Positions 6,579 to 22,389 of a DNA stretch of 64,000 nt are shown piece after piece; position 1 is the first letter of the stretch; each line of letters starts with the position of its first letter. Source of the DNA: a bacterium (GTDB lineage: Bacteria; JADJOY01); contig JAXLQJ010000030.1 in assembly GCA_046331705.1 (NCBI GenBank), positions 1 through 64,000 on the forward strand, read 5' to 3'. The notes beneath the pieces are model-generated. The model did not search any database. It was not told the DNA's origin and worked only from the letters and a program-made list of their open reading frames with translations. Position numbers and translations under genes: made by a program.

Positions 6579-8723
6579 GTGGGCTATCGCATCGGCATCG
6601 ACGTCGGCGGCACGTTCACGGATTTCGCGCTGGTCCGCCCGGATGGCTCGATCGACGTCACCAAGAGCCTGACCACACCACAGAACCAGGCACTCGGCGT
6701 CATCCAGGGCTTGCACGACCTCGCTTCGCGCGAAGGACGCTCGCTCACGCAGCTCCTCGGCGCGACCGACGTGGTGGTCCACGCCACCACCACCGCCGAC
6801 AACACGCTCATCGAGCACAGCGGCGCCTCGACGGGGCTCATCACCACCGAAGGCCATCGCGACGAGATCGAGTTCCGGCGCGGCTGGCGCGAGAACATCT
6901 GGGACCCGACCTACCCCGCGCCGCCGGTGATCGCGAAGCGCCGCTTCCGCTCCGGCGTACCGGGGCGGCTCGATCACCACGGCCACGAGCTCGTTCCCCT
7001 CGACGAAGACGCCGTGCGCCGCGCGGCGCAGCGCTTCCACGCCCACGGCATCCAATCGGTGGCGGTGGCGCTGCTCTTCAGCTTCGTCGATCCGCGCCAC
7101 GAGAAGCGCGTCGGCGAGATCCTGCGCGAAGAGGCCCCGCACGCGCGCGTCTACCTCTCGCACGAGGTCATGCCGGCGGCGCCTGAGTTCGAGCGCACCT
7201 CCACCACGCTCGTCACCGCGTTCGTCGGGCCGCGGGTCGTGAGCTACCTCGAGCGGCTGCAGCACGAGCTGACCGAGGGCGGCTACCGCAACGCGTTGCT
7301 CATCATGCAATCGAACGGTGGCATCACCACCGTCGAGGCCGTGAAGCAACGCCCGATCGTGACGCTGGCGTCGGGACCGGCCGGCGGTGTGACCGCGACG
7401 GTGGAGGTCGCCAAGCGCGCCGGCATCCGCGACTTCATCGGCGTCGACATGGGCGGCACCTCCTACGACGTCTGCCTGGTGCGAAACGGCGAGCCAGAGA
7501 TCAAGAGCTTCTGGAACTGGCTCTACCGGCACTGCATCGCGCTGCCGGTGGTGGACGTGCTCTCGATCGGCGCGGGCGGCGGCTCGATCGCGACGGTGAA
7601 CGCCGGCGGGCTCACCGTCGGCCCCGAGTCGGCAGGCTCGGACCCCGGCCCGATCTGCTACGGACGCGGCGGCACCCGCGTGACGGTGACGGACGCGAAC
7701 CTGGTGCTCGGCTACCTCAACCCGAAGGCGCTCTGCGGCGGCGCTCTCGAGATCCACTGGGACGGCGTCGAGGACGCGTTGCGCGAGCAGGTCGCGGCGC
7801 CGCTCGGCTTGAGCGTGATCGAGGCCGCGGCGGGGATCCACCGCCTCACCAACGCCAACATGAACAACGCCATCCGTCGCGTGTCCTCGGAGAAAGGCCA
7901 CGATCCGCGGAAGTTCGATCTGGTGGCGTTCGGCGGCGGCGGTCCCACCCACGCCACCGCGCAAGCGCTGGAGATGGGGATCGACCGCATCGTGGTGCCC
8001 CGGCTTTCGCCGGTGCTCTCCGCCTACGGCACGCTCACCGCCGACTTCGTGGTGAATCAGGTACACGCGCACATCGCCGAGGTCACGCTCCTGGACATCG
8101 ACCAGGTGAACGTGGAGCTGGCCGAGCTGCGGCGCCGCGCCGAGGCGGAGCTCAAGCAGGTGGGTGTGACCGGTCGCGACGTGGAGCACCACGTGGCGTT
8201 CGGCTGCCGCTATCCCGGCCAGACGTTCACCCTGAGCGTTCCCGCCGAAGTCTCCGAAGGCACCATCACTCGCGAGACGGTCGCCGGCATCGCGCAGCGC
8301 TTCCACGAGCTGCACGAGCAGCTGCACACCTTCGCGACCCCCAGCGAGCCGGTGGTGGTCGCGGAGCTCACGGTGCGCACCGTGGGAGTGGCGCCCAAGC
8401 CCGAGCTGCCCCGGATCGCCAAGGCCCGGGGAACGGCGAAATCGGCGCTGCTCAGCAAGCGTCGCGCGTATTTCGGCGGCGCGATGGTGCCGACCCCGGT
8501 CTACGACGGCGCCCGCCTCGGTGCCGGCCACGTCGTCGTGGGACCGGCGATCATCGAAGAGACGTTCTCGACCATCGTGGTCCATCCCGAGCAGCAATCC
8601 ACCGTGGACCGCTACGGCAACCACGTCGTCACCCGCCGACGCGCGAGCCGCGCCCGCAAACCGACCCGCAAGCCCGCCGCGAAGTCGAGCGCCGCTCGAC
8701 GTTCCGCACGGCGAGCGAGGTGA
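6579..8723 (+). CDS. Hydantoinase/oxoprolinase subunit A (HyuA/acetone-carboxylase beta family)
   Basis: IGIDVGGTFTD, SGPAGG, DMGGTS, SIGAGGGS, GPESAGSDPGP, TVTDAN; GGAGG RBS before GTG. Confidence 0.93.
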   Translation: MGYRIGIDVGGTFTDFALVRPDGSIDVTKSLTTPQNQALGVIQGLHDLASREGRSLTQLLGATDVVVHATTTADNTLIEHSGASTGLITTEGHRDEIEFRRGWRENIWDPTYPAPPVIAKRRFRSGVPGRLDHHGHELVPLDEDAVRRAAQRFHAHGIQSVAVALLFSFVDPRHEKRVGEILREEAPHARVYLSHEVMPAAPEFERTSTTLVTAFVGPRVVSYLERLQHELTEGGYRNALLIMQSNGGITTVEAVKQRPIVTLASGPAGGVTATVEVAKRAGIRDFIGVDMGGTSYDVCLVRNGEPEIKSFWNWLYRHCIALPVVDVLSIGAGGGSIATVNAGGLTVGPESAGSDPGPICYGRGGTRVTVTDANLVLGYLNPKALCGGALEIHWDGVEDALREQVAAPLGLSVIEAAAGIHRLTNANMNNAIRRVSSEKGHDPRKFDLVAFGGGGPTHATAQALEMGIDRIVVPRLSPVLSAYGTLTADFVVNQVHAHIAEVTLLDIDQVNVELAELRRRAEAELKQVGVTGRDVEHHVAFGCRYPGQTFTLSVPAEVSEGTITRETVAGIAQRFHELHEQLHTFATPSEPVVVAELTVRTVGVAPKPELPRIAKARGTAKSALLSKRRAYFGGAMVPTPVYDGARLGAGHVVVGPAIIEETFSTIVVHPEQQSTVDRYGNHVVTRRRASRARKPTRKPAAKSSAARRSARRAR

Positions 8724-10990
8724 GCATGCCCACCGCCATCCGTACCACGCGCACTCGCGGCGCCACGCGTCCGGCCGAGAAGCGCACCGCGCGCAGGCCG
8801 AGCGCCGGGAAGTCCAGCGGACGAAAAGCGCCCTCGCCGCCGCGCGCGCCCCACATCGACCCCATCACCGCCGAGGTGATCCGCGGCGCGATGGAGACGG
8901 TCGCCTTCGAGATGGCGATGCACGTGAGCCTTGCCGCCGTCACGCCCATCTTGAACCAGTCCAATGAGCGGAACGCGAGCATCCTCGACAGCCGCGGGCG
9001 GCTCGCGGCGCTCTCGGTGGGGATTCCGCAGTTCATGCTCGCGTCTCGCGGGCCGGTGCGCTTCGCCCTCGAGTTCTTCGGCGCCGACGGCTTCCACGAC
9101 GGCGACGTGTTCGCCGCCAACGATCCGTACCACGGCGGCGGCCACCTGCCCGACTGGAACGTGTTCGCGCCGGTGGTGGTGGACGGCGAGCTGGTGCTCA
9201 TCGCCTCCATCCAATGCCACCACGGTGACACCGGCGGTGACACTCCCGGCGGTTACTCGGTGAACGCCGTCGACGTCTGGGCGGAAGGCCTGCGCGTCCC
9301 GGCCATCAAGCTCGTGGAGCGCGGCAAGGAGCGAAAGGACGTTCTCTACTTGCTGCGCACCAACAACCGCCTGCCCACCCACACCGCCGACTTGAAGGCC
9401 CAGATGGGTGCCGCCACCCTCGGCGCGCGGCGCTTGAAGGAGCTGGTCGAGAGCTACGGCGCCGACACCGTCCGCGCCGCCATCGACTACTCGATCGATC
9501 TCACCCGGCGCCAGGTGCGAAAGGCCATCGCGAGCTGGCCCGACGGCGTCTACGAGGGCCGCGCGTCGGTGGAGCAAGACACCCGCGGCAACCGCGACAT
9601 CCAGATCCACTGCAAGGCCACCGTTGCCGGCGACCAGCTCACCCTCGACTACAGCGCCTCCGACCGCCGCACGAGCCTCACCACCAACGGCACCTTCGGC
9701 AACACCCAGGGCATGGTGCTCTCGCAGTTCTGCACCATGGTGGACCCGTCCATCCCGAAGAACGAGGGGCTCTTCGAGGCGTTCGAGCTGATCGTGCCCA
9801 AGGGCACGTGCATCAATCCCGAAGAGACGCGGCCGGTCTCGGCGGGAACACACCACCCGGGCGTGGAGGTCTCCGAAGCGCTCTGCCTGGCGCTCTCGCA
9901 GGCCGTGCCCGATCGCGCCCAGCCGCAGACGTACAAGATCGCGATCCCCACGGTGATCTTCGGCAATCACCCGCAGACGGGGACCTTCTTCGTGGATCAG
10001 TCGGTGGACACCACGTCCACGTGCGCCTGCGCGTCCTCGGCTGGCGACGGCTGGGGCGCCACGCCCACCGCATTCGGCAACCTCATCCTCTCCACGGCGG
10101 AGATCAACGAGAGCCTGCTGCCGCACCGCCAGATCGCCCGCGACCTCATCACCGACAGCGGCGGCGCGGGGCGCTGGCGCGGCCAGCCCGGCGCCCGCTA
10201 CGTGAAGGAGGTCACCGCCGATTGCCAGGTTTACACCTGGGTGCTCGGCCCCAAGACGCGCGTCCCGGGAGTGGCCGGCGGCAAGCCCGGCTCGGTGAAC
10301 CGCGTGTTCCTGCGTCACGGCGGTCCGCACGCCTACGAGGTCAAGCACACCGCGTTTTACGTCGGCCACAAGGCCGGCGAGCAGATCATCGTGGACTTCG
10401 CGTCAGGCTCGGGCTGGGGCGATCCACTCACGCGGCCGCCCGAGCTGGTGCTCGAGGACGTGCTCGACGAGTACGTGTCCATCGAAGGGGCCGCGCGCGA
10501 CTACGGCGTGGTGATCGAAGGCAATCTCGCCGCCCTGGACCTGCGCGTGAACGCCGCCGCCACCGAAGCGCTGCGCGCCGAGCAACGCCGCCAGCGTGAG
10601 GAAGAGGCGGCCCGCGGCCCGGTAGACGACGCCCCCACGCGGATCGCGAACGTGCAGGAGTGGTTCGACCGGCGACTGCCCTGGAAACTCCGCGAGAACC
10701 CCGATGTGACCGGCGGCTTCAACGGCACCTTCGCCTTCAACGTGTCCGGCGAAGGCGGCGGTCAGTGGTCCGTGACCCTCTCCGGCGCCGAAGCCACCGT
10801 CACCACCGGCCTCTCACCCGACGCCGCGTTCACCCTCTCGTGCAGTGCCGAGAACTTCGTGGGCATGACCAACGGCGAAGTCGACGGCATGCAACTCTTC
10901 ATGAACGGCCAACTCGGCTTCGAAGGCGACATGAACGTTTCGATGGGCCTCAAGGCCTCCTCGAGCCCTTCGTCACCGGCCTCAACCGTC
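8720..10990 (+). CDS. Hydantoinase B/oxoprolinase subunit with C-terminal SCP2 sterol-carrier domain (3' end uncertain, frameshift near 10955)
   Basis: NDPYHGGGHLPD, HHGDTGG, DSGGAGRWRG, GWGDPL..V..D; then FAFNVSGEGGGQWSV...FMNGQLGFEGDM, typical of SCP2. Confidence 0.85.
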
Positions 10991-11088
10991 GTCCGGGGCC
11001 CGGCTCCAGCCGGGGCGCCATCGTCCGATTGCAGCGTAGTCGAGCTAACCCGCATCCAATCCAGTCCGCACCCTCCCGCCGACCCCTC

Positions 11089-11535
11089 ATGGCCCGCTTC
11101 GAGCACCACCTTCATCGCCGCGCCGATCGAGGACGTCTTCCGCTTCCGCCTCGATCTCACCACCCTGCCCCGCTACAACCCCGACGTCACCGACGTCCGC
11201 CTCATCTCCGGCGAACCCCTCACCCCCGGCGCCACCTACACCTTCCGCCTCCGCGTCGCCCCCGGCTGGGTAACGACCGCACGCCTGCAAGTCACCGACG
11301 TCGCCCCACCCACCCGCCTCGCCTTCGCGATCGAGTCCCTCATGCCCGCCCGCGAAGAATGCAGCTTCGCCGCCGCCACCATGACGACATCCCCGGCACC
11401 GAGATGCGCTTCGCGACCGAAGTCACCACCAGGGCGGCCCGTTCAAACCCCTCGTCGACCGCCTCTTCGTCCTGCCCAACCTGAAGAAGCAAACGCTACG
11501 CGAGCTAACCCTGATGAAACGCTGTCTGCAGAGCC
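11089..11535 (+). pseudogene. SRPBCC/polyketide-cyclase family protein, frameshifted
   Basis: MARFEH then a frame change to TTFIAAPIEDVFRFRLDLTTLPRYNPDV...GATY...PPTRLAF; C-terminal helix LRELTLMKRCL lies in another frame. Confidence 0.65.
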
Positions 11536-11629
11536 CGCGCTACCCGGATCCGCACCGCCCGCGCTTGCACCGCTTTTCAGTACGCACTCGAGACGATCGT
11601 CTAGGCCGCCGCGTGTCTTCTGCGCGGCA

Positions 11630-11731
11630 CCGCGGTGACGATGTCAGCGTTGCTCGTGCTGTGCCGGGGTGGCCATACCGAAGCACAGCACCATCGGTAT
11701 CGAATTCACCGTTACGGTCTACTTGTTGGAT
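11630..11731 (-). repeat. Degenerate attC-like site (distal)
   Basis: R''-like ATCCAAC on the minus strand 20 bp after the cassette ORF stop; internal hairpin GTGCTGTGC/GCACAGCAC; no clear R'. Confidence 0.3.
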
Positions 11732-11750
11732 GGTCCTTCGCACCGATTGG

Positions 11751-12125
11751 TCAACCTTGCAGCGTCATGGCGAGCGAATCCGGAGAATCAAACACCCCAC
11801 CAAACAAGAGCAATGCGATCCACGGCCCGGTCACAATCGCGACGGTGAGGGCGCCTGTACAAGAACCGACGCTCGGGTTCGTGGCAGTTCCCCAAAGGAC
11901 GACGTTGACGACTGACGCGATGGGCGGGAAAGCAATGGCACGTGGTGCAGGCCGAGACATCCGCGCAGAATCCACGCTACCTTCGGGCCACGCGAAGAGG
12001 ATTGCTGTCCCGCCAAGCGCGCCGATCCCACGCAGAAGTCCGTCCGTGTCGAGGATGCCGGCAAAGAGAAACCAGATGGCTGCAGCAGATCCGAGGCAGC
12101 AAGCCGCAATCAGATACGGTCTCAT
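11751..12125 (-). CDS. Putative cassette-borne membrane protein
   Basis: Lower GC, several hydrophobic segments; ATG about 20 bp after the R'-like GCTGGAC of the attC at 12148. Confidence 0.55.
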   Translation of the reverse strand: MRPYLIAACCLGSAAAIWFLFAGILDTDGLLRGIGALGGTAILFAWPEGSVDSARMSRPAPRAIAFPPIASVVNVVLWGTATNPSVGSCTGALTVAIVTGPWIALLLFGGVFDSPDSLAMTLQG

Positions 12126-12147
12126 CGCAGCGCGCTCAATCTGAACC

Positions 12148-12249
12148 GTCCAGCCCCAGGCTCGACGCCGGCGCAGACTACCCCGAGACCCAGACGAACG
12201 CGAGAAACTGTCAAATGTTGTGGATGAAGGCGTCGGTCAGGCCTTGGGC
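12148..12249 (-). repeat. Degenerate attC site E
   Basis: Arms GTCCAGC-CCCAG-GCTCGACGCC and GGCGTCG..AGGCC-TTGGGC; internal GACTACC and CCAGACGAACGC shared with the other attC sites. Confidence 0.45.
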
Positions 12250-12269
12250 TGGTCCTCTCGTTCCTACTC

Positions 12270-14489
12270 GAAGTCCTCGCCCTGGCCGTCTGGGGCTGGT
12301 CGGATCAGTTGATCGCCTCCACCGAGGAGGTGCGGATGAAGAGCCGATCTGATCGACAGCGTGGTCGCCGGTCAAACACGAGGTAGATGGGCGGTACCCG
12401 ATCTCGCTGCGGCGGGCCGTGGTCGCCTACGTGCACGAGCAACGCAGCGTCGGACGCGCCTCGCCGGTGGCTCTGGAGCTGGGGGTGACGGGCCGACGCT
12501 CCTCACTGGGTGCGGACCGCATCGCCGTCGATCCGGCCGGTCACGATCGCGACCGCGTCGGCGTCGTGAGGTCGCTCGCGCTGCAGTCGAAACGACCCGT
12601 GCCCTGGCCAGTGGCCACCGCGTCGAGGGCTCGACGTGGACAGCCGTCGCGGTCGATCGTGTGCTCGCGTGATCAGGTCAGTCGTCGCTCCATGTACTTG
12701 CCTGCACGGCGCCGGTCGACATGCGCAAGGGCTTCGAGGGCTCTCCGCCCTCGTGCGCCAGGTGCTGCATCGCGATCCAGCAGGTGGCCTCTCCTCTTCA
12801 CGAATCGCGCGGAAGCGCTGCCAAGGTGCTGCTCTGGGACCAGGACGACTGCCTCTGCGCGGCGACTCGAAGAAGACGAATTCGCCGACCTCGCGCGCGC
12901 AGGAACAGGCGAGCCTGGTGCTCACCGCCACCGAATTGCAGCTCTCTCGAAGGCGGCGACCTGATCGGACAGCGCTCGCTTTCACCTGATTTTGGTGAAA
13001 GGATCTTGTGATCGGTGCGTCGTTGGGAGAAAACGCGCCGCCATGCGCCTCTCGAGCACATCCACGACGAGCACGTGCCGTTCGCGGTGTTGCAGCAGCG
13101 CCGGATCGAGGATCCTGCGGGGCGGCTGCGCGATCCAGCGCCGGATCGCCGAGGCAGCTTGAGGACGCACAGCTCGTCTTCCTGAGCGAGATCGTGTCGG
13201 CTTGAGCAACGGTCGCGCATCGAGCAGCGCGCGTTCGGCGATTCCGAGCGTCGGCGGTATCGCGGCCCTACGGATGAACCCACCGATCCAGCTCGCGGCG
13301 GCCGCGGCAGCAGTCGCTTCCGATCGAGGGCGGGTGCGTGCTGCCGAGGGCGAGCGCGGCTGTCCGTCGTGCGGCGTGAAGATCGACGAGTGGGCCGGGC
13401 AGTACGAGGACGGCGACGAGATCACCGTCGAGATGCCGCGTTCGCTCGTGCGCCACCGTCGCCGAAGTACGCTGCGGGTGCAACGGCGCCGTGGTCGGCG
13501 CCCGTCCCGCAAGCTCATCCCGGCGGCCGGTACTCGATCGGCTGGCGTCGATGTGGCGATTACACCTCGACCACCTGCCGCTCGAGCGTCAGGTGCGGGT
13601 GATGGCGCGCAGGGCCTCACGATCGCGAGCCAGACGCTCTGGGATCGAATGGCACCGCCGAGCACCTGGCGCCGACTTCGGCGCGCTGATTGGGCGGATT
13701 CGCGTGCCGGGATGCATGCGGACGAAACCTGGTGGCGGTTGATGGGCACCAAGTCGTCGCCGAAGCGTTGGTGGGCGTGGTCGGGACCGGGACGCCGTTG
13801 CGTATCGCATCCTGGCAGGCCGCTCGACGAAGCCGCGAGGTGGTGCTCGGCGACTACCACGAGATCCGCTGATGGTGGCCGGGTACGGGCGTACGAAGCG
13901 CTCGACGCGCAAGTCCGGGATGAAGCTCGCGCATTGCTGGGCCACGTGCGGCACGGAAGTACCTGGAGATCCGACGGTATCGATCGAGGTCGAGCCGGTG
14001 CTGGGCTCGTCGGCGAGCTACGCCGTGGAGCCTGCTCGCGGCGTCACCGGATCAAATCCGCATGGCCGTCACCCGAACGCTCGCGGCCGCTGGTGGCGAT
14101 CCGCGACTGGAACGCTCATGCAGCGGAGACCCCGGCAGCGCGCTGCGCAAGGCGATCCAGTACATGCTGGGGATGGTCGGGTCTGACGCTCTTCGACGAT
14201 CCGCGCGTGCCACTCGATAACGCACCATCGAGCGCGATGCGTGGCCCGGTGGGCAGGAAGAATCTCTTCCCGAGATCGCGTTCGAAGCGCGGCACCGAGG
14301 TCGCGGCGCTCTTCTACAGCCTCCTGGAGACGGCGAAGCCTGCGGCGTCGATCCGAAGCACTACCTCACCGAAGCCGCCCACCGCGCCATCGACGAGCCC
14401 GGTGCGCTGCCCTCCCCCACAGCCGCTGATCGAGTGCGGTCCCGCGGAACCGCGCCGCGAGATCACGCCCGGGCCAGGGCGAGACTTAC
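12270..14489 (+). mobile_element. IS66-family element (tnpA-tnpB-tnpC, all frameshifted)
   Basis: Terminal IRs GAAGTCCTCGCCCTGGCC / GGCCAGGGCGAGACTTAC; TnpB-like VDMRKGFEG, LFTNR, KVLLWD; TnpC-like CPSCG, HADET, AHCWAH, PLDN, GRKN, FYSLLETAK; approximate flank duplication GTTCCT(A/T)C. Confidence 0.88.
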
Positions 14490-15163
14490 GTTCCTTCCTC
14501 ACCCGTCCTCGAACCACCCAGCTCGCACCTGAGCGACCAGGTGCGGCGCGTTCACCGGAGCCAGCGCTGCTGCGGCATCTCCAGCAGCGAAGGCCATGAG
14601 CAGCCCCTTCGCGCGAGACCCAGCACCCTTCGTGACGAACGCATCCCGGACGGCGTCTGCTGCAGCGCTTCTCGCACGCACTCGGTCACATTGCCTGTCG
14701 GCGTTTCCGTCCTCGCGGTGCGCACCGACAAGATGCTCAAGACGCTGAAGCTCGCTCGTCTCGACTTGAGCACGAGGCCGAGCTGCGCCGGCTCATCGGT
14801 GTGGATCTCTTGATCGTGGACGATTTTGGCCTCGACGCCATGGACGCGCTCGAGCCGCGACGCGCACGAGATCATCACCGAGCACCTGCCGAGCTCGATG
14901 ATCGGCGACCTCGAACGCGGCCGGACGATGGCTCGCCCGCGCCGACCAGGTCGGCCCGAGCGCCATCGACCGCCTGCAGCACCAGCGACCTGATCATCCA
15001 GGCGAGTGTGCCGAGACCTCGGCCGAGACCGCCAGCGCCCGCGTGAAGGCTGGACAAGGAACACGAGGGTCGTCAGCTCGTCCGGCATCGGCCCGGAAAT
15101 CTTCGTCGAGCAGGGTCGCTCTCCTGGCCGACCTCGCCCGACGGTTGAGCCTGGCGATCGACA
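14490..15163 (+). mobile_element. istB: IS21-family remnant (istB ATPase fragment and probable right end)
   Basis: LGHIACR, SVLAVRTDKMLKTLKLARLD, DLLIVDDFGLDAMD (Walker B), AIDRL; end ...CTGGCGATCGACA; istA not seen. Confidence 0.7.
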
Positions 15164-15216
15164 GCCATCAATCCTCCAGCCCGTGTTGTTCGAAGGAGGA
15201 AGCTCCACCCCGGTCC

Positions 15217-15295
15217 GCCCAACCCAGCTCACCAGCGGCCACGAACTACCACGCGTTCAGGCCTGTGTTCCTTGCGCCGACTGGTCGCGCCGAGT
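15217..15295 (-). repeat. attC site D (its R'' end displaced to 16558-16561 by IS3)
   Basis: Plus strand GCCCAAC-CCA-GCTCACCAG-CGGCCACGAACTACCACG...CTGGTCGC-GCCGA-GT|CGAC. Confidence 0.7.
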
Positions 15296-16553
15296 TGAAC
15301 GCCCGGGTTCCGGAACTCAATCGAAGAGGATGGGGTCATGGGACGCAAGAGCAAGTATCCGAACGAGGTGCGTGAGCGAGCGGTGCGGCTGGTCTACGGC
15401 CAGCAGGGTCAGCACGAGTCGGTGGGCGGCGATCTCGGCGATCGCCGGCAAGATCGGGTGCACGCCCGAGACGCTGCGGCTGTGGGTGCGCCAGGCCGAG
15501 CGTGACACGGGCAAGCGGGCCGGCCTGACGACCAGCGAGCGGGATCGCCTGAAGGACCTGGAGCGTGAGGTCCGCGAGTTGAAGCGGGCCAACGAGATCC
15601 TTGCAAGGCGTCCGCGTTTCGCTGACGGCGAGAACCGACCGCCGACCTCGCTGATGGTGACCTTCATCGATCAGCACCGGACCGAGTACGGGGTCGAGCC
15701 GATCTGCGACGTGCTGCCGATCGCCCCGTCGACGTACTACGCGCATCGGGCGTGCCCGGGATCGGCCAAGCGTCCGGCGCGCGCGAAGCGCGGCGAGGCG
15801 CTGCGCCCAGAGATCCAGCGGGTGTGGAACGAGAACCAGGCCGTCTACGGCGTGAGGAAGGTCTGGCAGCAGCTGGCCCGCGAGAAGGTCGGCGGCGCGT
15901 TGCACCGTCGATCGCCTGATGCGCGGCCTGGGGCTGCGAGGTGCCGTCTGCGGCCGCGCCTTCCAGGTCACGACGACGGCTGACGGGCCCGCGCGGCCAC
16001 CCGACCTGGTCGCTCGGCGCTTCACCGCGACACGGCCCAACCAGCTCTGGGTCGCGGACATCACGTCGCCGACCGGCTGGGTTTCGTGTACGTCGCGTTC
16101 GTGATCGACGTGTTCTCGGCGCATCGGTGGCGAGTGTCGAGTCCGCTGAAGACCGATCGCCCTCGATCGCTCGAGCAGGCGCTGCGCCGCCCCGGTGCCG
16201 ACGGCGTCGTGGTCCACAGCGACAGGGCCGGCAATACACAGCGATTCGCTATACCGAACCCTCGCCGCCGTCGGCGCGGTGCAGTCCGTCGGCAGTGTCG
16301 GCGACCTACGACAACGCCCTCGCCGAGACGATCAACGGGCTCTACAAGGCCGAGGTGATCCGCAGGGGCCGGGCAACATCGATATGGTCGAGTACGCAAC
16401 GCTGGTCTGGGTGGACTGGTCAACAACCGCCTCTCGAGCCGATCGGGTACGTCCCGCCGGCCGAGTACGAAGCGGCGTACTATCGAGGTCAAGAGAGCCA
16501 GGCCGCTGGCCTGACTCAAGTAATCCGGTCTCCGGATTTCCCGGGGCAGTTCA
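15296..16553 (+). mobile_element. IS3-family (IS51/IS6110-like group) element, frameshifted orfA/orfB
   Basis: Ends TGAAC..CCCGGG / CCCGGGGCAGTTCA; 4-bp GAGT duplication at 15292-15295 and 16554-16557; Orf[29 protein letters not shown]; OrfB YGVEPIC, WVADIT, HSD, YDNALAETINGLYKAE. Confidence 0.92.
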
Positions 16554-16561
16554 GAGTCGAC

Positions 16562-16850
16562 GATACGTCTGTTTTTTGATCTGTGCACGGCGCCGGCCCA
16601 AGCAATGAGTACATCGCGAAGAACCAAACGGCGTTGGTGACCCACGCCGCGGCGCCAGACGGGCGGCTATGCAGCAGGCCAGCTATAGCGTCACCAGGAA
16701 AGCAACAACAAATGCAGGCAGTCCCAAGAAGAGCATCAGGAAGGATCCCGCATGGGCGAAGCCCGCGAAGACATCAACTATGACGCGGCTAACACCAACA
16801 AGTGCAGGCGAATACGCAGAACACGGCCAAGCGCCACCATTCGAGGCCCG
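16562..16850 (-). pseudogene. Putative cassette membrane protein (frameshifted)
   Basis: Hydrophobic pieces FAHAGSFLMLFLGLPAFVVAFLV and AAWVTNAVWFFAMYSLLG between attC C and attC D. Confidence 0.4.
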
Positions 16851-16898
16851 GCGGGTGATCGGGCTCTCGTTTCGTTCAGTCACGATCTGCCTTGTTTC

Positions 16899-16986
16899 GT
16901 CGAACGCCGCGCTCACCGCAGCTACGGTAGACCGCGGTCAGACGAGCGCAACCTCGCGTGCCGACAGGTGCAGCGCGATGTTGAGC
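16899..16986 (-). repeat. attC site C
   Basis: Minus strand: R'' GCTCAAC, 5-bp spacer ATCGC, L'' GCTGCACC (extra base), L' GGTGAGC, 5-bp spacer GCGGC, R' GTTCGAC. Confidence 0.82.
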
Positions 16987-17253
16987 TTCCGCGTGCCAAG
17001 GGCGCTCAAGCGTCCTCGAACACGACAACGAACTCCAACATCTCATTCTGGGCGTCTTGCAGGCAAGCTAGAGGAGGCATCGCGAGGAAGGCGATTGAGC
17101 ACGTTCAGCCCCTTCAAACCAGGCGTAGCGGAGATCGTCGCCTTCGATAGCGGACGCACTCCAGCGCGTCCCAGTTTCCTCCGTAGGCCAGGAAATCGAG
17201 GGCGCCGGCAAGAAGCTCATGCAGCGAGGCCGAGAACGTAGCATGCGCGACAT
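16987..17253 (-). pseudogene. Putative small cassette gene (frameshifted)
   Basis: Pieces EGDDLRYAWFEG and LACLQDAQNEMLEFVVVFED between attC B and attC C. Confidence 0.35.
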
Positions 17254-17303
17254 TGATCACGATCACTTCGGGGCGCTGAGTCAATCCTGCCTGCTAACCC
17301 AGA

Positions 17304-18827
17304 TGGAATGAGAAGGCTGACCTCCCGATCACGAGATGTCGTGAACGATCTCAAGGTTGGATCAACGGGCTCGAAGCCCAAACAGGGTCAGCCATGAGCG
17401 ATCGTGCCACGAAGTCCTTCGATCGAAGCGCAGGCCGCCCCGCTTCCGCCCCTCACCGCCGGCCTCGACGTCGGCGACCGCCACTCGACGATGTGCTTCA
17501 TCGACGCCGCCGGCGAAACGGTCGAGCGTACGCGGGTGCGCACCACCTCCGAGGCGTCCGGGGCATTCGGCCACCGCGCACCGCTGCGCATCGCCCTCGA
17601 GGTGGGTACCCACTCTCGATGGATCCGTCGGCTGCTCGTCGAGCTCGGTCACGAGGTGTTCGTCGCGAATCGTCGGGTCCGAGCGATCCGAAGGACACGA
17701 AGACCACGTCGGATGCCGAGATGCTGCGCGACTTCGCGCGGGTCGACCCAGCTTTGTCCCGTCGAATCGCCGCGAGGATGGCCGGGCGCTCGCGGTGCGC
17801 AGTCGCGACGGTGTCCGCGCGCGCACTCTGCTCATCAACCACGTCCGCGGTGCCATCAAGCCGGTGTCGGAAGCACTGTTCGTCCGAGAGCCGCACGCCA
17901 GGCGCCGGAGCAGATTCCCGCGGAGCTGCAGGCGGTGCTTCAGCCCGTCATCGAGCAGATCGGCCACCTGACCCGCACCGTCCGAGAGTTCGAGCAGATC
18001 GAGGCTCGAGCAATTCCCCGACGCACAACGGCTGCGGGATTCAAGCGTTGGTCCCGTGACCGCGCTCACCTTCGTTTTGACCGTCGACGACCCGGCGCGG
18101 TTCCAGAACGCGCATGATCGGACCCTATCTCGGACTTTACCCCCGGCGAAAACAAAGCGCCCGGGACGATCCGCAGCTCGGCATCACGAGCGGGCGAGAC
18201 CTGCGCAAGCTCGTCGTCACCTGCGCGCAGCACACGCTAGGCCCATTCGGCAAAGATAGCGCCTTGCGCCGCTGGGGACTCCAGCGAGCAGGCCCGGCGA
18301 TCGGATCGCCAAGAAGAAAGCGGTCGTTGGCGTCGCCCGGCGACTGACCGTCGTGATGCTGCACCTGTGGGTGGTGGCGAAACCACCGGCCGTTTCCGAC
18401 GCCCGCGCCACCCGCGCGACCGCCTTCCCCGGAAAAGACCGTCGAGAAGGAGAAGAGGCGGCATAGCCGGCGACTCAGAGAAACGAACACCAGATGGAAC
18501 CGATGGAGCAACGGAAGGCCGCGGCGCGGGTCGCGGATCTCGGCGACCAGCACCGCCACCTCGTCCGGGTGACCGAGCTGCGAGGCTCCGGCAGACCCAG
18601 ATGGCGGCACCAGGGCGAGTCGGACTCCAGCCTGCACCGAGGAACCACCGGCTCACCCGAGTGCGAATGGAAGCGTGGCGTCGGTGGTTCGCCCGCCTTC
18701 GATCGTCGGCCCGCGACGGTCGGCCTTCCCGACTGCTCTTCGAGAAACCGTTCATCTACCCGCGAATACGCCGAACGGGCACCGCCGCCTCAACAAGGAG
18801 TGAACTTGAGGAGAGCCTTCATGGAGA
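17304..18827 (+). mobile_element. IS110-family (IS1111-like architecture) element with frameshifted transposase and 3' non-coding region
   Basis: GLDVGDRHS, ALEVGTHSRWI, DAEML, RTLLINHVRG, GPVTAL, YLGLYPRRKQS, KKKAVVGVARRL; sub-terminal IRs ATGAGAAGGCT (17308) / AGCCTTCAT (18814); AGA shared at both junctions. Confidence 0.85.
18560..18780 (+). ncRNA. Candidate bridge/seek RNA of the IS110 element
   Basis: Non-coding region after the transposase with stems CGGGTGA/TCACCCG (18566/18653) and GAACCACCG/CGGTGGTTC (18642/18682); contains ACCCAGATGG, identical to the left junction. Confidence 0.5.
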
Positions 18828-18898
18828 ACCAGCAGCGGCCACGGACTACCGCGGCGTCGCGCATCCCGGTTGCCGAGTGCTGCAGCGGCCAGTTGGAC
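18828..18898 (-). repeat. attC site B (its R' end at 17292-17303, separated by IS110)
   Basis: Minus strand R'' GTCCAAC-TGGCC-GCTGCAGC; core GCGGCCACGGACTACCGCG; R'-like GTTAGC beyond the IS. Confidence 0.72.
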
Positions 18899-18912
18899 GG
18901 TGTTCACTGCGA

Positions 18913-19395
18913 TCACGCAGGCGGACGCGTGTGGTACCAAACAAAGTCGCATCCGCTCATTGCTTCCCAGGGAATCGACTCAGCGGCGGCTGCATGCAAC
19001 TTCCCACACGTCAATCTCCCCATGCGCATTCGGGATGCGGTCGCCTGGCGACGGTGGTCGTGCCGTCGATCTTCTCGTATGCACGGAGGCGCTTGGCATT
19101 CCCAAACTTCGAGCTGTACGTAACCCGAGGTGCCTTCGCAACAAAGAACACAGCCTTACTCGTCTGCGATAGACCAGGCAGCAACTCGCGAGGACGTCCT
19201 CACTGCAGTGCCAGGTCGTGCCCGAGCAGAACGGTCCAACCGTGCGCTGAGCCGATGCCGATCTCTTGCTTTGCCAGTGATCCAGCATGCGGGAAGGCTG
19301 CGGAAATCGAGGATCGGCCAGCTCAGCGCCGCGAGAACATCGCCAGGATCTGCTTCGGCGCTGTATTCCAACTAGGAATCCTGTCGAAATCCCAT
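18913..19395 (-). pseudogene. Putative cassette gene, about 160 aa soluble hypothetical (frameshifted)
   Basis: GGGGAG RBS then ATG; pieces IGIGSAHGWTVLLGHDL, GTSGYVQLEVWE, RLRAYEKIDG; stop 14 bp before R'' of attC B. Confidence 0.45.
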
Positions 19396-19429
19396 CTTGA
19401 AGAATCTCCCCGCTTGGGCGACCGGCGTC

Positions 19430-19514
19430 CGTCAACCCTGCTCACCTGCGGCCACGGACTACCACGGGATCCAGACGAGCGCCACCACGCGTCAGGTGCA
19501 GCGATCAGTTCGGT
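19430..19514 (-). repeat. attC site A
   Basis: Minus strand: ACCGAAC-TGATC-GCTGCACCTG ... CAGGTGAGC-AGG-GTTGACG; core GCGGCCACGGACTACCACG. Confidence 0.8.
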
Positions 19515-19976
19515 TGTCAGCCTCGGCAGAGAATCGCCATCCACAAGAACGGGAGAGTTGCGGCGGTGAGAGCTGCCGTGGTCATGGCAACTGCCGCGGC
19601 ACCGTAGTTGAGTATCCATGTTGGTGCCGGGACGGCGTAACGCGATGACGAGCTGAAGGCCCGAGGACGGAATCGCCCATCGGGGTCGATCGCCATCGCG
19701 ATCGAGTGAACGCCCCGACGGTCGAGTCAAACCCCGCGAACCACCGCGCTCGCGTAGCCAGGTACATCAGGGAACCGAGACCGCGAGTGCGGCGAGGAGG
19801 CGGATCTGGGCATCGGACCGCGAGGATCGCTCGCAGATCTTGCCACCACGAAGATGGCTACGGCCTTCGGTCCAAGGACGACTGGAGCTGAGAGGAGGCG
19901 CAGTAAAAGACAATCGTTCCGGCTCCGATCGCCTGGTATCCAGTCAGCCATCATTCAGGAGGAACCCACAGCTCAT
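19515..19976 (-). pseudogene. First cassette gene, membrane protein (frameshifted)
   Basis: GAGGTG RBS and ATG just after GTTCGGT; hydrophobic pieces ending NYGAAAVAMTTAALTAATLPFLWMAIL at attC A. Confidence 0.45.
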
Positions 19977-19986
19977 CACCTCATCA

Positions 19987-20010
19987 ACCGAACACTCCTA
20001 TTCGACGGAA
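19987..20010 (-). other. attI-like recombination site heading the array
   Basis: Minus strand TTCCGTCGAATAGGAGT-GTTCGGT; GTTCGGT is the exact complement of R'' ACCGAAC of attC A; lacks the family attC core. Confidence 0.5.
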
Positions 20011-20270
20011 CTAGATAGCTCCGGGCTATGCCGCGTGCGTGCCATGTATTCCGGCCGTTGCCGCGTCGAACCCGCTGAAATCCTTCGGTGACGCAACGAT
20101 ACGCCGGGGCCGGGGGAGTACAACCCCGCTATCTGGGCGAGGATAGCGCTGGGGCGGGCTCGAGCTGCGCGGCGGCGCGGACGGGGCGGCGCCCTCCATC
20201 GGGTACGCCGGAATCCCCGCACCTGCTTCGGGGCCCGTCGCGGCCGCCCTTCCCGCCCACGATCGGCGCC

Positions 20271-20305
20271 AAGAAGAAGGGCGCGAGGGGATTACCCTCG
20301 CGCCC
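20271..20305 (-). terminator. Intrinsic terminator of the sulfotransferase gene
   Basis: 11-bp stem GGGCGCGAGGG/CCCTCGCGCCC followed on the minus strand by TTCTTCTT. Confidence 0.7.
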
Positions 20306-20337
20306 CGGTCTGGCCGAAGCTTGGTCGGTTGGTCAGG

Positions 20338-22113
20338 TCACGGCGGATAGAGCGTGGGCACGCGCTGGGCGCGGTAGCTGATGTAGGCCGAGGACGGGTT
20401 CTGGATGGTGACTTCGAAGACTTTCTCGAAGGTGGTGCGGTTGACCTCGGCCAGTCGGACGTAGTTCACGTTGCCGGTCTGCAAGAGGCCGCCGTCGCAC
20501 TGGAGGGCGGTGCCGCCGGGCTCGAGCTCGACGCCGCCGGAGAAGTAGGCATAAAGGGGCGGGACGTAGTCCGGGTCCACCCACTCCCACACTTGCTGCA
20601 CTTCGAGGTTCGGCTCGTCGATGGCGAACTCTGCCAAGCGGGTGTACTCGGTGGGCCGGTAGTCGCCGTTGTCGTAGAGCAGGATGTTTCCATTCGCCAA
20701 GAGCCGCGGCGAGTGCGAGTACGCCTGCAGCATGCCGGGGCCGGTGAGGGTCAGGAACGGCCAGGCGTCGTCGCCGGAAGAGCTGGCGTCGTCCGAGCCG
20801 AGGACCCAGACCATCGAGCTGTCGGAGCGGCGGATCTTGAAGACCATGTCCTGGCTGCGGCACGAGACGATGAGCGAGTCGTCGCCGGCCGAGTACTGAA
20901 GGCCGTTGCAGTGCGACCAGTCCTTGGTGGGAATGTTGCCGAAGAGGGTGTTGAAGAGCGGCGTGTTGAAGAGCTCCATCTGGGGGATTCGGTGGGGATC
21001 CAGGATGTCGAGCATCTTGATCTGGCTCACCAGCGCGCCCGCGGGGGTGAACTCGGTGATGATGTCGCCCACCACGTTGCACACGCCGCCGGCGCAGCCG
21101 GTCGGTCCCGCCGGATAGCCGCCGATCGAGCGCATCTCGATCGAGAACGTGAGGTAGTTCCCGCCCGGCAGGGTGATGACGTCGTGATGGAGGAGGTTCA
21201 CGCCGATGGACGCGGGCAGGTACGTGTTGAGGATGTTTCCCCACACGTCGATCTCGTAAATCATCGTCCCGCCGTACTCCATGATGAGGATGTGGCCGTT
21301 GGCGAGGCGCTGCACCTCGAGCATGTACTTGCCGTCGCGGTAGTACCAGACCACGCGGCCCTGGGCGTCCAGCGCGTAGAGCCCGTCGTTGTTGGGCGTG
21401 ATGTTCAAGAGGCCGTTGTTGAGCGAGAAGAGTGTCACGCCCGGCTCCATCTCGGCCGGCTGCGACACGTTCACCACCAGCGGGAAGACGTGCGGGATCT
21501 GGGGTGGCACGTAGCTGAGCCCGCCCTTCGAGACCGTCGTGCCGGAGGTGGCGAACGCGGTGAACGCGTAGTTGCCGCCGGTGAACATGCCGAGGACGCC
21601 CACCTTGTGGGTGGTGCCCGGGTTGGTGCTGAGGATGCCGCCCGAGGGCACCATGTAGGTCCCGTCGGGGCCGGCCACCTGCACTGACGGCGCCGCGGCG
21701 ATGGTGGTGTCGAACTGGATGTAGGCGCTGAGCTTGTTGTTGGCGTTCTGCACCACGCGGGCGTTGCAGATCTGCAGCGAGCCGTTGTTCACCAGGTTGT
21801 GGTTCACGGCCGCCGACACGTCGGTGTTGAGCGCCACTTGGACGCCGTAGGTCCCGGTGGGCTTGTTACAAGGCAGATCCGCCACGATCTGCGTGTTCGA
21901 CCAGCTCCGAACCAGCAGCTCCGCCCCGCCGTAGAGCACCTTCGACGTGGTGGCCTGGGTGTTGCCGAAGCCGTTGCCGGCGATGGTGATGGTCCCGCCG
22001 GGAGACCCTGGATTCGGCGTCACGGACGAAACCGTGTGGCAGCCCGCCAGCGCGGCGAGGGCGAATGCCAGAAGCAGCGGCAGTCGCGCGGGGTTCGTTC
22101 GGCTTCGATTCAT
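20338..22113 (-). CDS. Aryl-sulfate sulfotransferase (ASST family) lipoprotein with N-terminal IPT/TIG domain
   Basis: Lipobox LAGC; SVTPNPGSPGGTITIAGNGFG (IPT); HHD, DWSHCNGLQY, SCRSQD, SHSP, LYDNG motifs; AGAGGAG RBS. Confidence 0.85.
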   Translation of the reverse strand: MNRSRTNPARLPLLLAFALAALAGCHTVSSVTPNPGSPGGTITIAGNGFGNTQATTSKVLYGGAELLVRSWSNTQIVADLPCNKPTGTYGVQVALNTDVSAAVNHNLVNNGSLQICNARVVQNANNKLSAYIQFDTTIAAAPSVQVAGPDGTYMVPSGGILSTNPGTTHKVGVLGMFTGGNYAFTAFATSGTTVSKGGLSYVPPQIPHVFPLVVNVSQPAEMEPGVTLFSLNNGLLNITPNNDGLYALDAQGRVVWYYRDGKYMLEVQRLANGHILIMEYGGTMIYEIDVWGNILNTYLPASIGVNLLHHDVITLPGGNYLTFSIEMRSIGGYPAGPTGCAGGVCNVVGDIITEFTPAGALVSQIKMLDILDPHRIPQMELFNTPLFNTLFGNIPTKDWSHCNGLQYSAGDDSLIVSCRSQDMVFKIRRSDSSMVWVLGSDDASSSGDDAWPFLTLTGPGMLQAYSHSPRLLANGNILLYDNGDYRPTEYTRLAEFAIDEPNLEVQQVWEWVDPDYVPPLYAYFSGGVELEPGGTALQCDGGLLQTGNVNYVRLAEVNRTTFEKVFEVTIQNPSSAYISYRAQRVPTLYPP

Positions 22114-22389
22114 GGCGTCTCCTCTGTCGCGATCGTCACGGCTTCGTCGAGTGTACCAGTGCAGGCCCATCCGCACATGTCCTACGGATCGGAGGCGCCG
22201 CCGGTTCATCGGCCGCACCCGACCTCGCCGCCTCGGTGCAGCTTCCGCGCCATCCTGCCGAGCAGGCTCGCGCCGCGGAAGCGCGGCGAATTCACGGCCG
22301 GCGCGCCCCTGGCCCGTGGTCGTCGCGCAACTTGTGTTGCCGCGGCGCAACTTTCGTCGCGCTCGCGTCGCCCAAGGCGGCGCGGAGCA

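Follow-up and report, generated by a model that had tools for sequence, protein, structure and literature searches.

Integrase-less cassette arrays (CALINs) are defined in Cury et al. (2016; PMC4889954) by two or more attC sites grouped on the same strand, away from any intI gene or intI pseudogene. The average size reported there is about five sites, the cassettes are without assigned function, and about half of the reported cases are ones where the replicon encodes IntI. In the Treponema-type chromosomal integrons described in PMC3607928, intI points towards the cassettes. Insertion sequences of the IS1111 family target one end of attC sites (PMC11187229); for the group that includes ISPst6 and ISKpn4 that source gives a DEDD transposase with Transposase_20, a long non-coding region downstream of tnp, and a fixed position and orientation at one attC end. 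Cassettes off the integron platform, in cells that carry IntI, are described as attG-type or isolated cassettes (bioRxiv 10.1101/2022.09.11.507474).

We analysed a window of 64,000 nucleotides on a 90-kb contig (C30) of an uncultured bacterium. The region of interest is an island of about 8.7 kb at 11529-20250 on the minus strand, consisting of a cassette array and three insertion sequences (IS). It is very probably a CALIN of about six promoterless minus-strand cassettes, each ending in an attC site of roughly 90 nt. Five sites (A to E) lie within 12140-19517, clustered under the 4-kb rule of IntegronFinder: from A to D, no two neighbouring detected parts are as much as 2 kb apart, and the nearest parts of D and E are separated by 0.5 kb. 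With at least two clustered sites on one strand and no integrase near, the array falls under the definition in PMC4889954. It also resembles the CALINs described there in its number of sites, in cassettes without assigned function and in a genome that carries complete integrons as well. It differs from that set in that IS from three families split three of its five sites, and in that it comes from an uncultured high-GC lineage whose sites were called with a lineage-specific model rather than with IntegronFinder. Like the attG-type and isolated cassettes of the bioRxiv report it sits off the platform in an IntI-bearing cell, but it is a multi-cassette array.

The host carries three complete integrons on other contigs. 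A search of the genome for integrases with TIGR02249 (cut-off 265 bits) gave 13 matches, three of them above the cut-off, on C59 (450.8 bits), C44 (448.7 bits) and C23 (362.7 bits), and none on the window contig. No intI or intI remnant was found on the whole 90-kb contig, where tblastn with the three IntI proteins gave a best E of 0.29; the statement of the first-pass annotation that 64 kb contain no intI thus holds over the longer distance too. No intI adjoins the window array, as it would in a complete integron. In the three complete integrons of the genome, as well as in G003 (a genome of the same genus) and L046 (a locus of another metagenome-assembled genome), intI lies upstream of the attC sites and is co-oriented with them, as in the Treponema-type integrons of PMC3607928. 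The window array has the same attC type as these integrons, but neither an integrase nor a recognisable attI.

Assignment of the window sites to attC rests on a model built from the genome's own intI-linked sites. This covariance model (R1) was made from 15 sites, all outside the window, 10 of which lie just downstream of the three integron integrases. On the window it matched sites A, C, D and B at 52.4, 49.0, 44.4 and 36.9 bits (E 1.8e-11 to 2.4e-7); these four matches share the minus strand and are confined to 15213-19517. The next window match scored 20.8 bits, and the fifth-best among the 218 matches listed had E 0.0048. Across the 8.2-Mb genome R1 found 21 sites at E ≤ 3.1e-5, 17 of them outside the window: 10 follow an intI on its strand at a distance of up to 5.5 kb, four are in the window and seven are at other integrase-less places. 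A profile HMM from seven non-window sites likewise gave 21 places at E ≤ 2.7e-4, four of them in the window. None of the window sites scores as high as any of the 17 sites found elsewhere in the genome, 15 of which are training data. The family is roughly 95 nt long and follows all three TIGR02249-level integrases on the same strand. It also follows the intI of G003 and the two closest IntI homologues in other metagenome-assembled genomes (L046, four matches; L047, one match). In the C23 array two minus-strand ORFs, of 145 and 122 aa, each occupy the interval from one site to the next, so that the site type is both linked to intI and bounds single-gene units there; the same is true in G003 and L046. 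The array shares its lineage-specific attC type with the three complete integrons. Scans with general tools did not recover it: a Rfam 15 scan at gathering thresholds had an ALIL element as its only match in the window and no match in five reference loci, and a strict generic geometry scan recovered none of the window sites.

The repeats that the first-pass annotation had reported lie where it placed them, on the minus strand, and make up five attC-type sites plus remnants rather than six clean sites. Site A (reported at 19430) is uninterrupted at 19427-19517 (R1 52.4 bits, E 1.8e-11; nhmmer E 2.3e-16), and 50 nt of it are identical to C23:88654-88703, a site near intI. Site C (reported at 16899) is likewise uninterrupted, at 16895-16989 (49.0 bits, E 1.5e-10; nhmmer E 7.6e-11). 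The paired positions 18828/17292 belong, as had been proposed, to a single site B split by a 1.5-kb IS at 17302-18828. Its 5' part, R'' to L', lies at 18829-18901 (36.9 bits; nhmmer E 5.3e-8, model positions 7-85) and its 3' remainder at 17291-17301, with the R' GTT at 17296-17298 as placed by a junction alignment of three IS copies. Similarly, 15217/16558 mark one site D, split by an IS3 element at 15296-16553 that made a 4-bp duplication, ACTC. The 5' stub with the R'' region (16554-16572) has GAC in place of AAC and ends in the target duplication at 16554-16557; the 3' part (15213-15295) ends in the R' sequence GTTGGGC and contains 34 nt at 91% identity to site A. The R1 match to this part (44.4 bits) covers 15213-15303, its first 8 nt being the IS3 end. 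When 16554-16572 is joined to 15213-15295 in an alignment, the family layout is restored. The element at 12148 exists but represents only the 3' half of a fifth site, E (12140-12201; R1 12.2 bits for 12178-12202 against model positions 39-63, read against the family consensus), which is split by an IS66 element. The 5' half, with L'' and the start of the loop, had been missed; it lies at 14634-14676 (nhmmer E 0.02, model positions 19-58; R1 17.7 bits) and forms direct repeat D7 with site B. A further attC at about 11630 was rejected: the stretch 11555-11660 is part of a DUF2199-type cassette sequence that recurs in the intI-adjacent array of C23.

The R''/L''/L'/R' layout that had been read from the repeats was borne out by the family alignment and by pairing counts. 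Its ends are AAC and GTT (5' consensus CGAAC, 3' consensus GGGTTCG), its spacers are 5 nt long, and the AAC arm of its L box bears two extra bases at a distance of 6 bp. The order in the L box is 3 bp, an extra G (15/15), 6 bp, an extra base (A in 10/15) and 4 bp; the central spacer has five unpaired columns per side (alignment A1). The pair 10-95 is CG in all 15 sites; pair 8-97 is formed in 14 of them and pair 9-96 in 12. L-box pairs switch between CG and AU, GC and CG, and UA and AU. Overall 81.2% of pair cells are paired, against 26.8-43.3% with the partners slid by one to three columns. Only 1 of 500 shuffles reached this paired share and 4 of 500 the covariation score, although the number of pairs with a compensatory change was not beyond shuffles (123/500). 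The published attC rule (PMC5027507) places the extrahelical bases on the AAC arm of the top strand, with 6-bp spacing and a usual bottom-strand T. The family agrees with this rule as given there in the arm, in the spacing and in the second extra base, which is T on the bottom strand where the top strand has A; the first is C on the bottom strand and not the usual G. The bottom strands of reference sites fold with two bulges on the 3' arm. By itself, folding energy does not single out window sites A and C: their bottom strands gave z scores of +0.92 and -0.47 against shuffles, and two intI-linked reference sites -1.27 and -2.94. Of the window sites, A, B and C show both triplets, and in D and E the AAC or the GTT is not clean (for E, the R' triplet); the L-box layout is kept in A, B, C and E, with a 2-nt gap there in D. 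The 3'-side spacer of site A is only 2-3 nt long, possibly through a sequence error.

All three IS lie on the plus strand. The element in site B (17302-18828) is of the IS1111 type (IS110 superfamily), sits in the L'-R' spacer and has its transposase opposite to the cassettes. Related copies occur at C2:268178-269838 (92% identity) and C54:41757-43455 (88%), and all three copies lie between L' and the R' GTT of attC-type sites in one orientation. The C2 copy matches DEDD_Tnp_IS110 (1.6e-21) and Transposase_20 (2.7e-20) and has about 417 nt of non-coding DNA downstream of tnp against about 155 nt upstream; in the window copy the frame is broken and the DEDD match (E 5.8e-5) is below the cut-off. 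In its transposase domains, its long downstream non-coding region and its fixed position and orientation in three of three copies, the family shares the features that PMC11187229 gives for the ISPst6 and ISKpn4 group; it differs from those elements as a new sequence variant that targets the attC type of this lineage. Both IS1111 junctions are covered by independent metagenome contigs. The IS3-family element inside site D (15296-16553) has a 94% identical copy at C14:67642-68945 with ORFs for HTH_Tnp_1 and rve, and carries the ALIL frameshift pseudoknot of Rfam at 15613-15728 (70.4 bits). The IS66-family element of 2.4 kb (12202-14633) lies in the loop of site E between copies of a 9-letter duplication (14634-14642 and 12193-12201); an 88% identical copy at C64:1826-4200 encodes TnpB_IS66 and DDE_Tnp_IS66. 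Contigs of three public metagenome runs (X1, X4 and X12) join 12192 directly to 14634, skipping 2441 letters with 9 shared, and are site E without IS66.

The island sits, as the first-pass annotation had placed it, between an SRPBCC gene and a sulfotransferase terminator, and its GC content is indeed lower (0.59-0.68 against about 0.68-0.72 in the flanks). The neighbours are two convergent chromosomal genes, a hydantoinase-B/SCP2/SRPBCC fusion gene and an arylsulfotransferase gene, whose stop codons are only 12 bp apart in the syntenic region of G005, a genome of the same family; G005 carries the empty site. At the same spot G003 has another insert, of 2.8 kb. The left edge of the island is fixed to within a few bases, the right edge to the interval 20147-20264. 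The junction lacks about 20 bp of native DNA, and the island ends are not clean integrase junctions. Between the arylsulfotransferase gene and the array, the only terminator-like site in 19400-20400 is a minus-strand hairpin at 20278-20306, with a 12-pair stem and a T-rich tail, in native DNA outside the island; a search of the same interval for a promoter-like site found none. Expression of the array is doubtful, given a terminator upstream and no recognisable promoter there. Upstream of the first cassette lies a 146-nt head (20001-20146, minus strand), 72% identical in blastn to C68:18626-18774; a pattern search found it at these two places only. The similarity stops within a few bases past a GTT (alignment A2). 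The C68 copy stands between a core gene on its upstream side and, downstream, a cassette-like unit with an attC 3' half at its end.

The cassette ORFs gave no significant family match above the cut-off. Between B and C, 17117-17293 (minus strand) encodes the N-terminal part of a barstar-like protein, followed by a frame break (Pfam Barstar, E 1.8e-4; 21.8 bits against a cut-off of 23.4; residues 10-45 on profile positions 3-39 of 96). The last cassette ORF (11751-12125, minus strand) encodes a small hydrophobic protein of 124 aa with no Pfam match and one relative, P0002 (123 aa, 78%), against which an out-of-frame block stands between two identical blocks. At the distal end the DUF2199-type fragment (11555-11660, minus strand) shares 48 nt at 94% with C23:85856-85903, which lies inside the intI-linked array where the C23 ORF carries DUF2199. 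A second piece in common with C23 sits upstream, with about 180 nt missing between both pieces. The claim that each site separates a short minus-strand ORF could be only half judged because of the many small deletions in the island sequence.

These deletions bear on whether the array is instead a decaying fossil, with IS and cassette genes turned into pseudogenes and attC sites no longer competent for recombination, a reading we consider unlikely. The frame break in the barstar-like gene and the out-of-frame block in the 124-aa ORF would fit it, as would the small deletions of the window attC sites against the family model. Compared with their own-genome paralogues, the window IS copies differ by 22, 33 and 68 deletion events, against 0, 0 and 5 insertions (together 123 against 5), and single-base deletions are not enriched beside identical bases (16/39). 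However, independent X7 contigs that contain the same IS1111-attC junctions and the neighbouring cassette differ from the window by only one or two changed letters but 11 and 32 extra letters per 350-400 nt, and a third independent contig by 3 changed and 12 extra. Natural decay is not known to yield many deletions with almost no substitutions, which counts against a fossil. Moreover, the flanking genes show 0-2 gaps in the same metagenome runs and keep ORFs of 972 and 670 codons. The deletions seen against paralogues and independent contigs are probably consensus errors, so the apparent pseudogenes and "degenerate" sites are not to be trusted.

That the repeats have nothing to do with integrons, being instead common intergenic palindromes such as REP-like elements or terminators, is highly improbable. 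This reading would suit their place in non-coding gaps, their GC-rich, imperfectly palindromic sequence and folding energies unexceptional for their composition, but there are only 21 significant copies in 8.2 Mb and 10 of these are directly downstream of the three integrases. Two extra bases give them a strand-specific asymmetry, they lie a cassette length apart, each unit of the C23 array holding a single ORF, and an IS1111-type element targets them. Equally improbable is that the array belongs to a complete integron with its integrase out of view, whether through loss at a contig break or through mis-joining of the island to this contig. The genome is a draft of 118 contigs, the window begins at a contig end, and cassette and IS repeats invite assembly errors. 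Yet intI in this lineage sits upstream of its sites, and here that side holds the arylsulfotransferase gene and then 70 kb without similarity to IntI (best E 0.29), while 11.5 kb of syntenic core genes lie downstream. The left junction (11024-11695) is bridged by an independent metagenome contig of run X4, and X12 contigs cease to fit at 20247 and 20264, at the right edge.

The link of the site family to intI, the attC layout and the missing integrase thus support the earlier reading of a CALIN-like array, which is of an ordinary, known kind; several CALINs occur in the genus. Neither of the two outcomes that the first-pass annotation named as speaking against its reading was seen. How the array arrived can only be inferred, and the truncated distal cassette together with the missing native DNA shows that it was not a clean single insertion. 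Three of its sites have been hit by IS, an IS1111-type element of the kind that homes to attC ends and the IS3 and IS66 elements. The bottom strand of each site, the plus strand of the window, is predicted to form an attC hairpin. With IntI supplied in trans, cassettes could then be cut out by recombination between attC sites and returned at an attI, and the array would serve as a passive cassette reservoir. That the hundreds of small deletions confined to these 8.7 kb are real seems quite unlikely to us; if they are, they would point to a novel, strongly deletion-biased mutational process acting on one mobile island and sparing the flanking genes.

The island at 11529-20250 of the window is an array of attC-bounded units that has no integrase and belongs to the integron type of its host, whose genome carries three IntI genes. 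A repeat finder, combined with a reading of the minus strand, located related palindromic elements at about 19.43-19.52, 18.83-18.90, 16.90-16.99 and 15.21-15.26 kb. When sites A and C were compared with the genome by short-word BLAST, the best relatives adjoined integrase genes on other contigs. We trained a profile model (attC-HMM) on seven sites from contigs C23, C59 and C100, with the window excluded. Searched with nhmmer, the whole genome gave 21 places at E≤2.7e-4, four of them on the minus strand of the window (19515-19437, 16990-16896, 18901-18830 and 15302-15219), and 14669-14630 matched as a half-site with E 0.02. A covariance model (R1) was built from 15 complete aligned non-window sites with attC-style structure annotation. 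Run on the window with filters off, R1 gave four matches, each of them on the minus strand within 15213-19517, with scores of 52.4, 49.0, 44.4 and 36.9 bits and E values from 1.8e-11 to 2.4e-7, while the fifth of the 218 matches listed scored 20.8 bits (E 0.0048).

Genome-wide, R1 found 21 sites at E≤3.1e-5, of which 15 are the training sites, four are those of the window and two (C54:43372 and C2:264879) are additional; R1 scored 150 of about 16,000 first-look candidates, and nhmmer covered the whole genome. In ten of these 21 cases an intI gene is present on the same strand, with the site 0.7-5.5 kb downstream of it. The first-pass annotation had named ordinary intergenic REPs as the alternative. 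With only 21 sites in the genome and 10 of these following an intI on the same strand, the family is rare and integrase-linked, and not a genome-wide REP. Four genomes of the same genus held 4, 11, 14 and 3 sites (R1, E≤1e-4), and two distant genomes 0 and 1. A strict generic geometry scan (AAC, 4-6 nt spacer, 3 bp, bulge, 6 bp, 4-6 nt spacer, GTT) recovered none of the flagged sites; it hit one place in the window (32319-32395), against 0-9 in shuffles, and was uninformative, partly because of small gaps in the window sites. Comparison of the island with the genome by tblastx returned 23869 rows, compositional noise only.

In the alignment of the 15 non-window sites, the 26 proposed pairs were formed in 81.2% of cells, as compared with 26.8-43.3% when the 3' partners were slid by 1-3 columns. 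The paired share was reached by one of 500 shuffles and the covariation score by four; the nine double-change pairs were equalled in 123 of 500 and hence are not unusual. Three L-box pairs swap CG/AU, GC/CG and UA/AU. On the ORF strand the 5' arm reads AAC and a 5-nt spacer, then 3 bp and an extra G, then 6 bp and a second extra base, then 4 bp and a variable loop, and the 3' arm is its complement minus both extra bases, followed by a 5-nt spacer and GTT. The first extra base is G in all 15 sites, and the second is A in 10, C in three, T in one and a gap in one. The published attC rules (PMC5027507) assign the extrahelical bases to the top strand's AAC arm, with a 6-bp stem separating the first from the last, a conserved bottom-strand T as the far extrahelical base and a spacer of 5-6 nt. 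The family conforms to these rules save for the first extrahelical base, which is a bottom-strand C here and usually a G. Since the AAC arm of the ORF strand is the one with the extra bases, the minus strand of the window is the attC top strand, as had been proposed. Bottom-strand folding had been suggested as a check. Two intI-linked reference strands gave the expected two-bulge hairpin in DNA folds (z −1.27 and −2.94); the bottom strands of window sites A and C did not exceed shuffles in stability (z +0.92 and −0.47).

Integrases were sought with NCBIfam TIGR02249 at a cut-off of 265 bits. Three full-length intI genes were found, at C59:21710-22654 (plus strand, 450.8 bits), C44:3476-4420 (minus, 448.7 bits) and C23:90368-91282 (minus, 362.7 bits), and the remaining ten matches were weaker tyrosine recombinases. 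None of the matches lies on C30, the contig of the window, and when the three IntI proteins were compared with the full length of C30 by tblastn the best E was 0.29, in agreement with the earlier statement that the 64 kb hold no intI. The search of the rest of the genome that it had recommended yielded these three genes and 17 non-window attC sites. In G003, a genome of the same genus, four attC sites at C36:13384-16245 come directly after a full intI (438 bits) and share its strand, and the clusters on its C21 and C27 have no integrase match. Among 80 loci around IntI homologues of other MAGs, the attC-HMM matched in only three; the two closest homologues (76% and 74% identity) have matches downstream on the same strand. 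These results indicate that this attC type travels with this IntI clade and that integrase-less clusters are usual in the genus.

Transcription of the integrase toward the cassettes was seen at C23:84847-91282, C59:21710-27081 and C44:2600-4420, at C36:13384-18551 of G003, and at a further locus in another genome (L046). This order, common to all complete integrons seen in this lineage, is that of the Treponema type as described in PMC3607928, and is not divergent. Further integrase-less attC clusters occur in the same genome at C54:37804-43465, C100:6901-7682 and C2:264879-269838, two of them with an IS1111-type element. On C10 (46482-46941 and 49825-50898), an IntI-like fragment covers model positions 166-306 only, below the cut-off; about 4 kb downstream of it, and on its strand, are an attC site and the DUF2199-type cassette sequence. 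This locus may be a degraded integron. The integrases of C44 and C59 and their first attC sites are nearly identical, and the pair may represent duplication of an integron or the binning of two strain variants into one genome.

The draft genome comprises 8.17 Mb in 118 contigs with a G+C of about 68-70%, and C30 has 90,352 bp. Two convergent genes flank the island: a long plus-strand ORF (8720-11638) with Hydantoinase_B, SCP2 and Polyketide_cyc2 (SRPBCC) domains, and a minus-strand arylsulfotransferase gene (20338-22350), 3' of which is a terminator-like hairpin (20306-20278, minus strand). The array therefore sits where the first-pass annotation had put it, between an SRPBCC gene and a sulfotransferase terminator. 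Its claim of lower GC also held, as G+C between the flank genes goes down to 0.59-0.68, and the high third-position G+C typical of window genes was seen in no frame of the island. A search of 19400-20400 for sigma-70-like promoters gave none. With the terminator ahead of it, the array is probably silent.

In G005, from another genus of the same family, the orthologues of the flank genes keep their synteny on both sides, with 12 bp between the two stop codons, an empty site. G003 carries a different 2.8-kb insert at the equivalent intergenic spot (locus L044, C3 ~13062-15866), with an IS3 fragment inside and no attC-HMM match. This spot looks like an insertion hot spot. On the left, homology to both genomes stops at ~11527; at 11527-11638 the hydantoinase-B/SCP2/SRPBCC fusion gene is without its native last codons and stop, and ~37 extra codons read through into island DNA. 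On the right, native intergenic sequence is back from ~20252. Contigs of one public metagenome run (X12) cease to fit at 20247 and 20264, and one contig of another (X4) spans the left junction. A 146-nt head element at 20001-20146, with two CTATC...GATAG-like hairpins, recurs at C68:18626-18774 and precedes integrase-less cassettes at both loci. The core gene upstream differs (arylsulfotransferase in the window, a Na/Ca exchanger on C68), and the similarity breaks off within a few bases past a GTT. Its first 55 nt are also present in a further genome (G002:C2:38223-38277). The head could serve as a landing site akin to attI, or be a repeat of terminator-like character.

Insertion sequences were recognised via paralogues from a whole-island BLAST against the genome. 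Site B is split by an IS1111-type element (17302-18828) with paralogues at C2:268178-269838 (92%) and C54:41757-43455 (88%). The protein encoded by the C2 copy combines DEDD_Tnp_IS110 and Transposase_20, and the longer non-coding region is downstream of it, matching the IS1111 arrangement in PMC11187229. All three copies have one orientation and are inserted into an attC-type site at one position, after L' and before the R' GTT; homing of such elements to attC sites is already known (PMC11187229). The IS3 element in site D (15296-16553) has an ALIL pseudoknot (70.4 bits) and a C14 paralogue with HTH_Tnp_1 and rve. It is bordered on both sides by ACTC, and site D is whole again once it is taken out. 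The IS66 element (12202-14633), whose C64 paralogue has TnpB_IS66 and DDE_Tnp_IS66, lies in the loop of site E with a 9-letter duplication on each side. The element reported near 12148 is real, although only the 3' half of site E (12140-12201) had been seen and the 5' half (14634-14676) missed. Contigs of three public runs lack the IS66 insertion at the equivalent site E. Both IS3 and IS66 are inside attC sites though attC DNA is only ~6% of the island, and their paralogues on C14 and C64 are not adjacent to attC-HMM matches. An IS21 IstA/IstB reading of the 2.4-kb element and of an 'LLIVDDFG' stretch at ~14780-14900 (plus strand) was dropped, as Pfam assigned the paralogue to IS66 and had no match for the stretch. 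The latter, Walker-B-like, is in an open frame at 14762-14900 (plus strand), against the cassette direction and with no Pfam match.

An attC site placed at ~11630 did not stand. Instead, 11555-11660 matches a ~575-nt sequence common to the C23 array, C10, C54, C2 and C68, in two pieces with ~180 nt between them missing; on C23 a DUF2199 ORF overlaps it. The island thus ends distally in a truncated cassette that also occurs in an intI-linked array. Judged by sequence, a minimal attC remnant is possible over the stop codon of the last ORF (~11745-11775). A group II intron was rejected for the repeated element beside attC sites, since no Rfam family was found in five loci and the DUF2199 ORF is present. 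Apart from the ~11630 site and the half-seen site E, the coordinates of the first-pass annotation were largely right, and its interpretation was correct. No island cassette ORF had a family match above cut-off. The segment 17293-17117 (minus strand) matches the N-terminal 37 positions of Barstar (E 1.8e-4; 21.8 bits, below the 23.4 cut-off), with the remainder of this barstar-like gene in another frame. The 124-aa ORF at 11751-12125 has a sole relative among 5.8 billion proteins (P0002, 78%), and the comparison shows an out-of-frame block flanked by two identical blocks.

Relative to their paralogues, the IS3 copy has 22 deletion events, no insertions and 46 substitutions, the IS1111-type copy 33, 0 and 82, and the IS66 copy 68, 5 and 225. 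Deletions in the island are 1-20 nt long and scattered, without a link to homopolymers. Contigs from activated-sludge runs of four studies align to the island. Two from run X7 that cross both IS1111-attC junctions (records 29 and 30) have 1 and 2 changed letters and 11 and 32 extra, and one covering a cassette and site C (record 28) has 3 changed and 12 extra. Flank pieces in public contigs show 0-2 gaps only. The share of the island's sampled words present in any one public run was at most 0.18, and so below half in every run. Given one insertion event, almost no substitutions and dozens of missing letters, the missing letters are very probably deletion-type consensus errors of this assembly, confined to the island, which is the best explanation of these comparisons. 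The low site scores, broken IS genes and frameshifted cassettes are therefore not to be taken as decay.

As to origin, simple loss of an integrase is disfavoured because no intI remnant is present. Insertion of cassettes by IntI at secondary sites has been described (bioRxiv 10.1101/2022.09.11.507474), and a clean event of this kind is disfavoured here because the distal cassette is truncated and ~20 bp of native DNA are lost. Rearrangement or transfer of part of an array seems the likeliest route, at about even chances. Following the discussion in PMC4889954, IntI acting in trans could excise island cassettes and shift them to an attI.

A cassette array missed by gene calling was thus recognisable to a reader of the sequence alone. 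Pseudogene annotation of island genes needs a prior check of reads. For integron biology this is a routine case, CALINs (clusters of attC sites lacking an integron integrase) being common. Of modest interest are the three IS families inside attC sites of a single small array, the hot spot with another insert in a sister genome, and the 146-nt head at two integrase-less loci. The island adds one more integrase-less array for an uncultured high-GC lineage that is poorly sampled and whose integrons have the integrase directed toward the cassettes.
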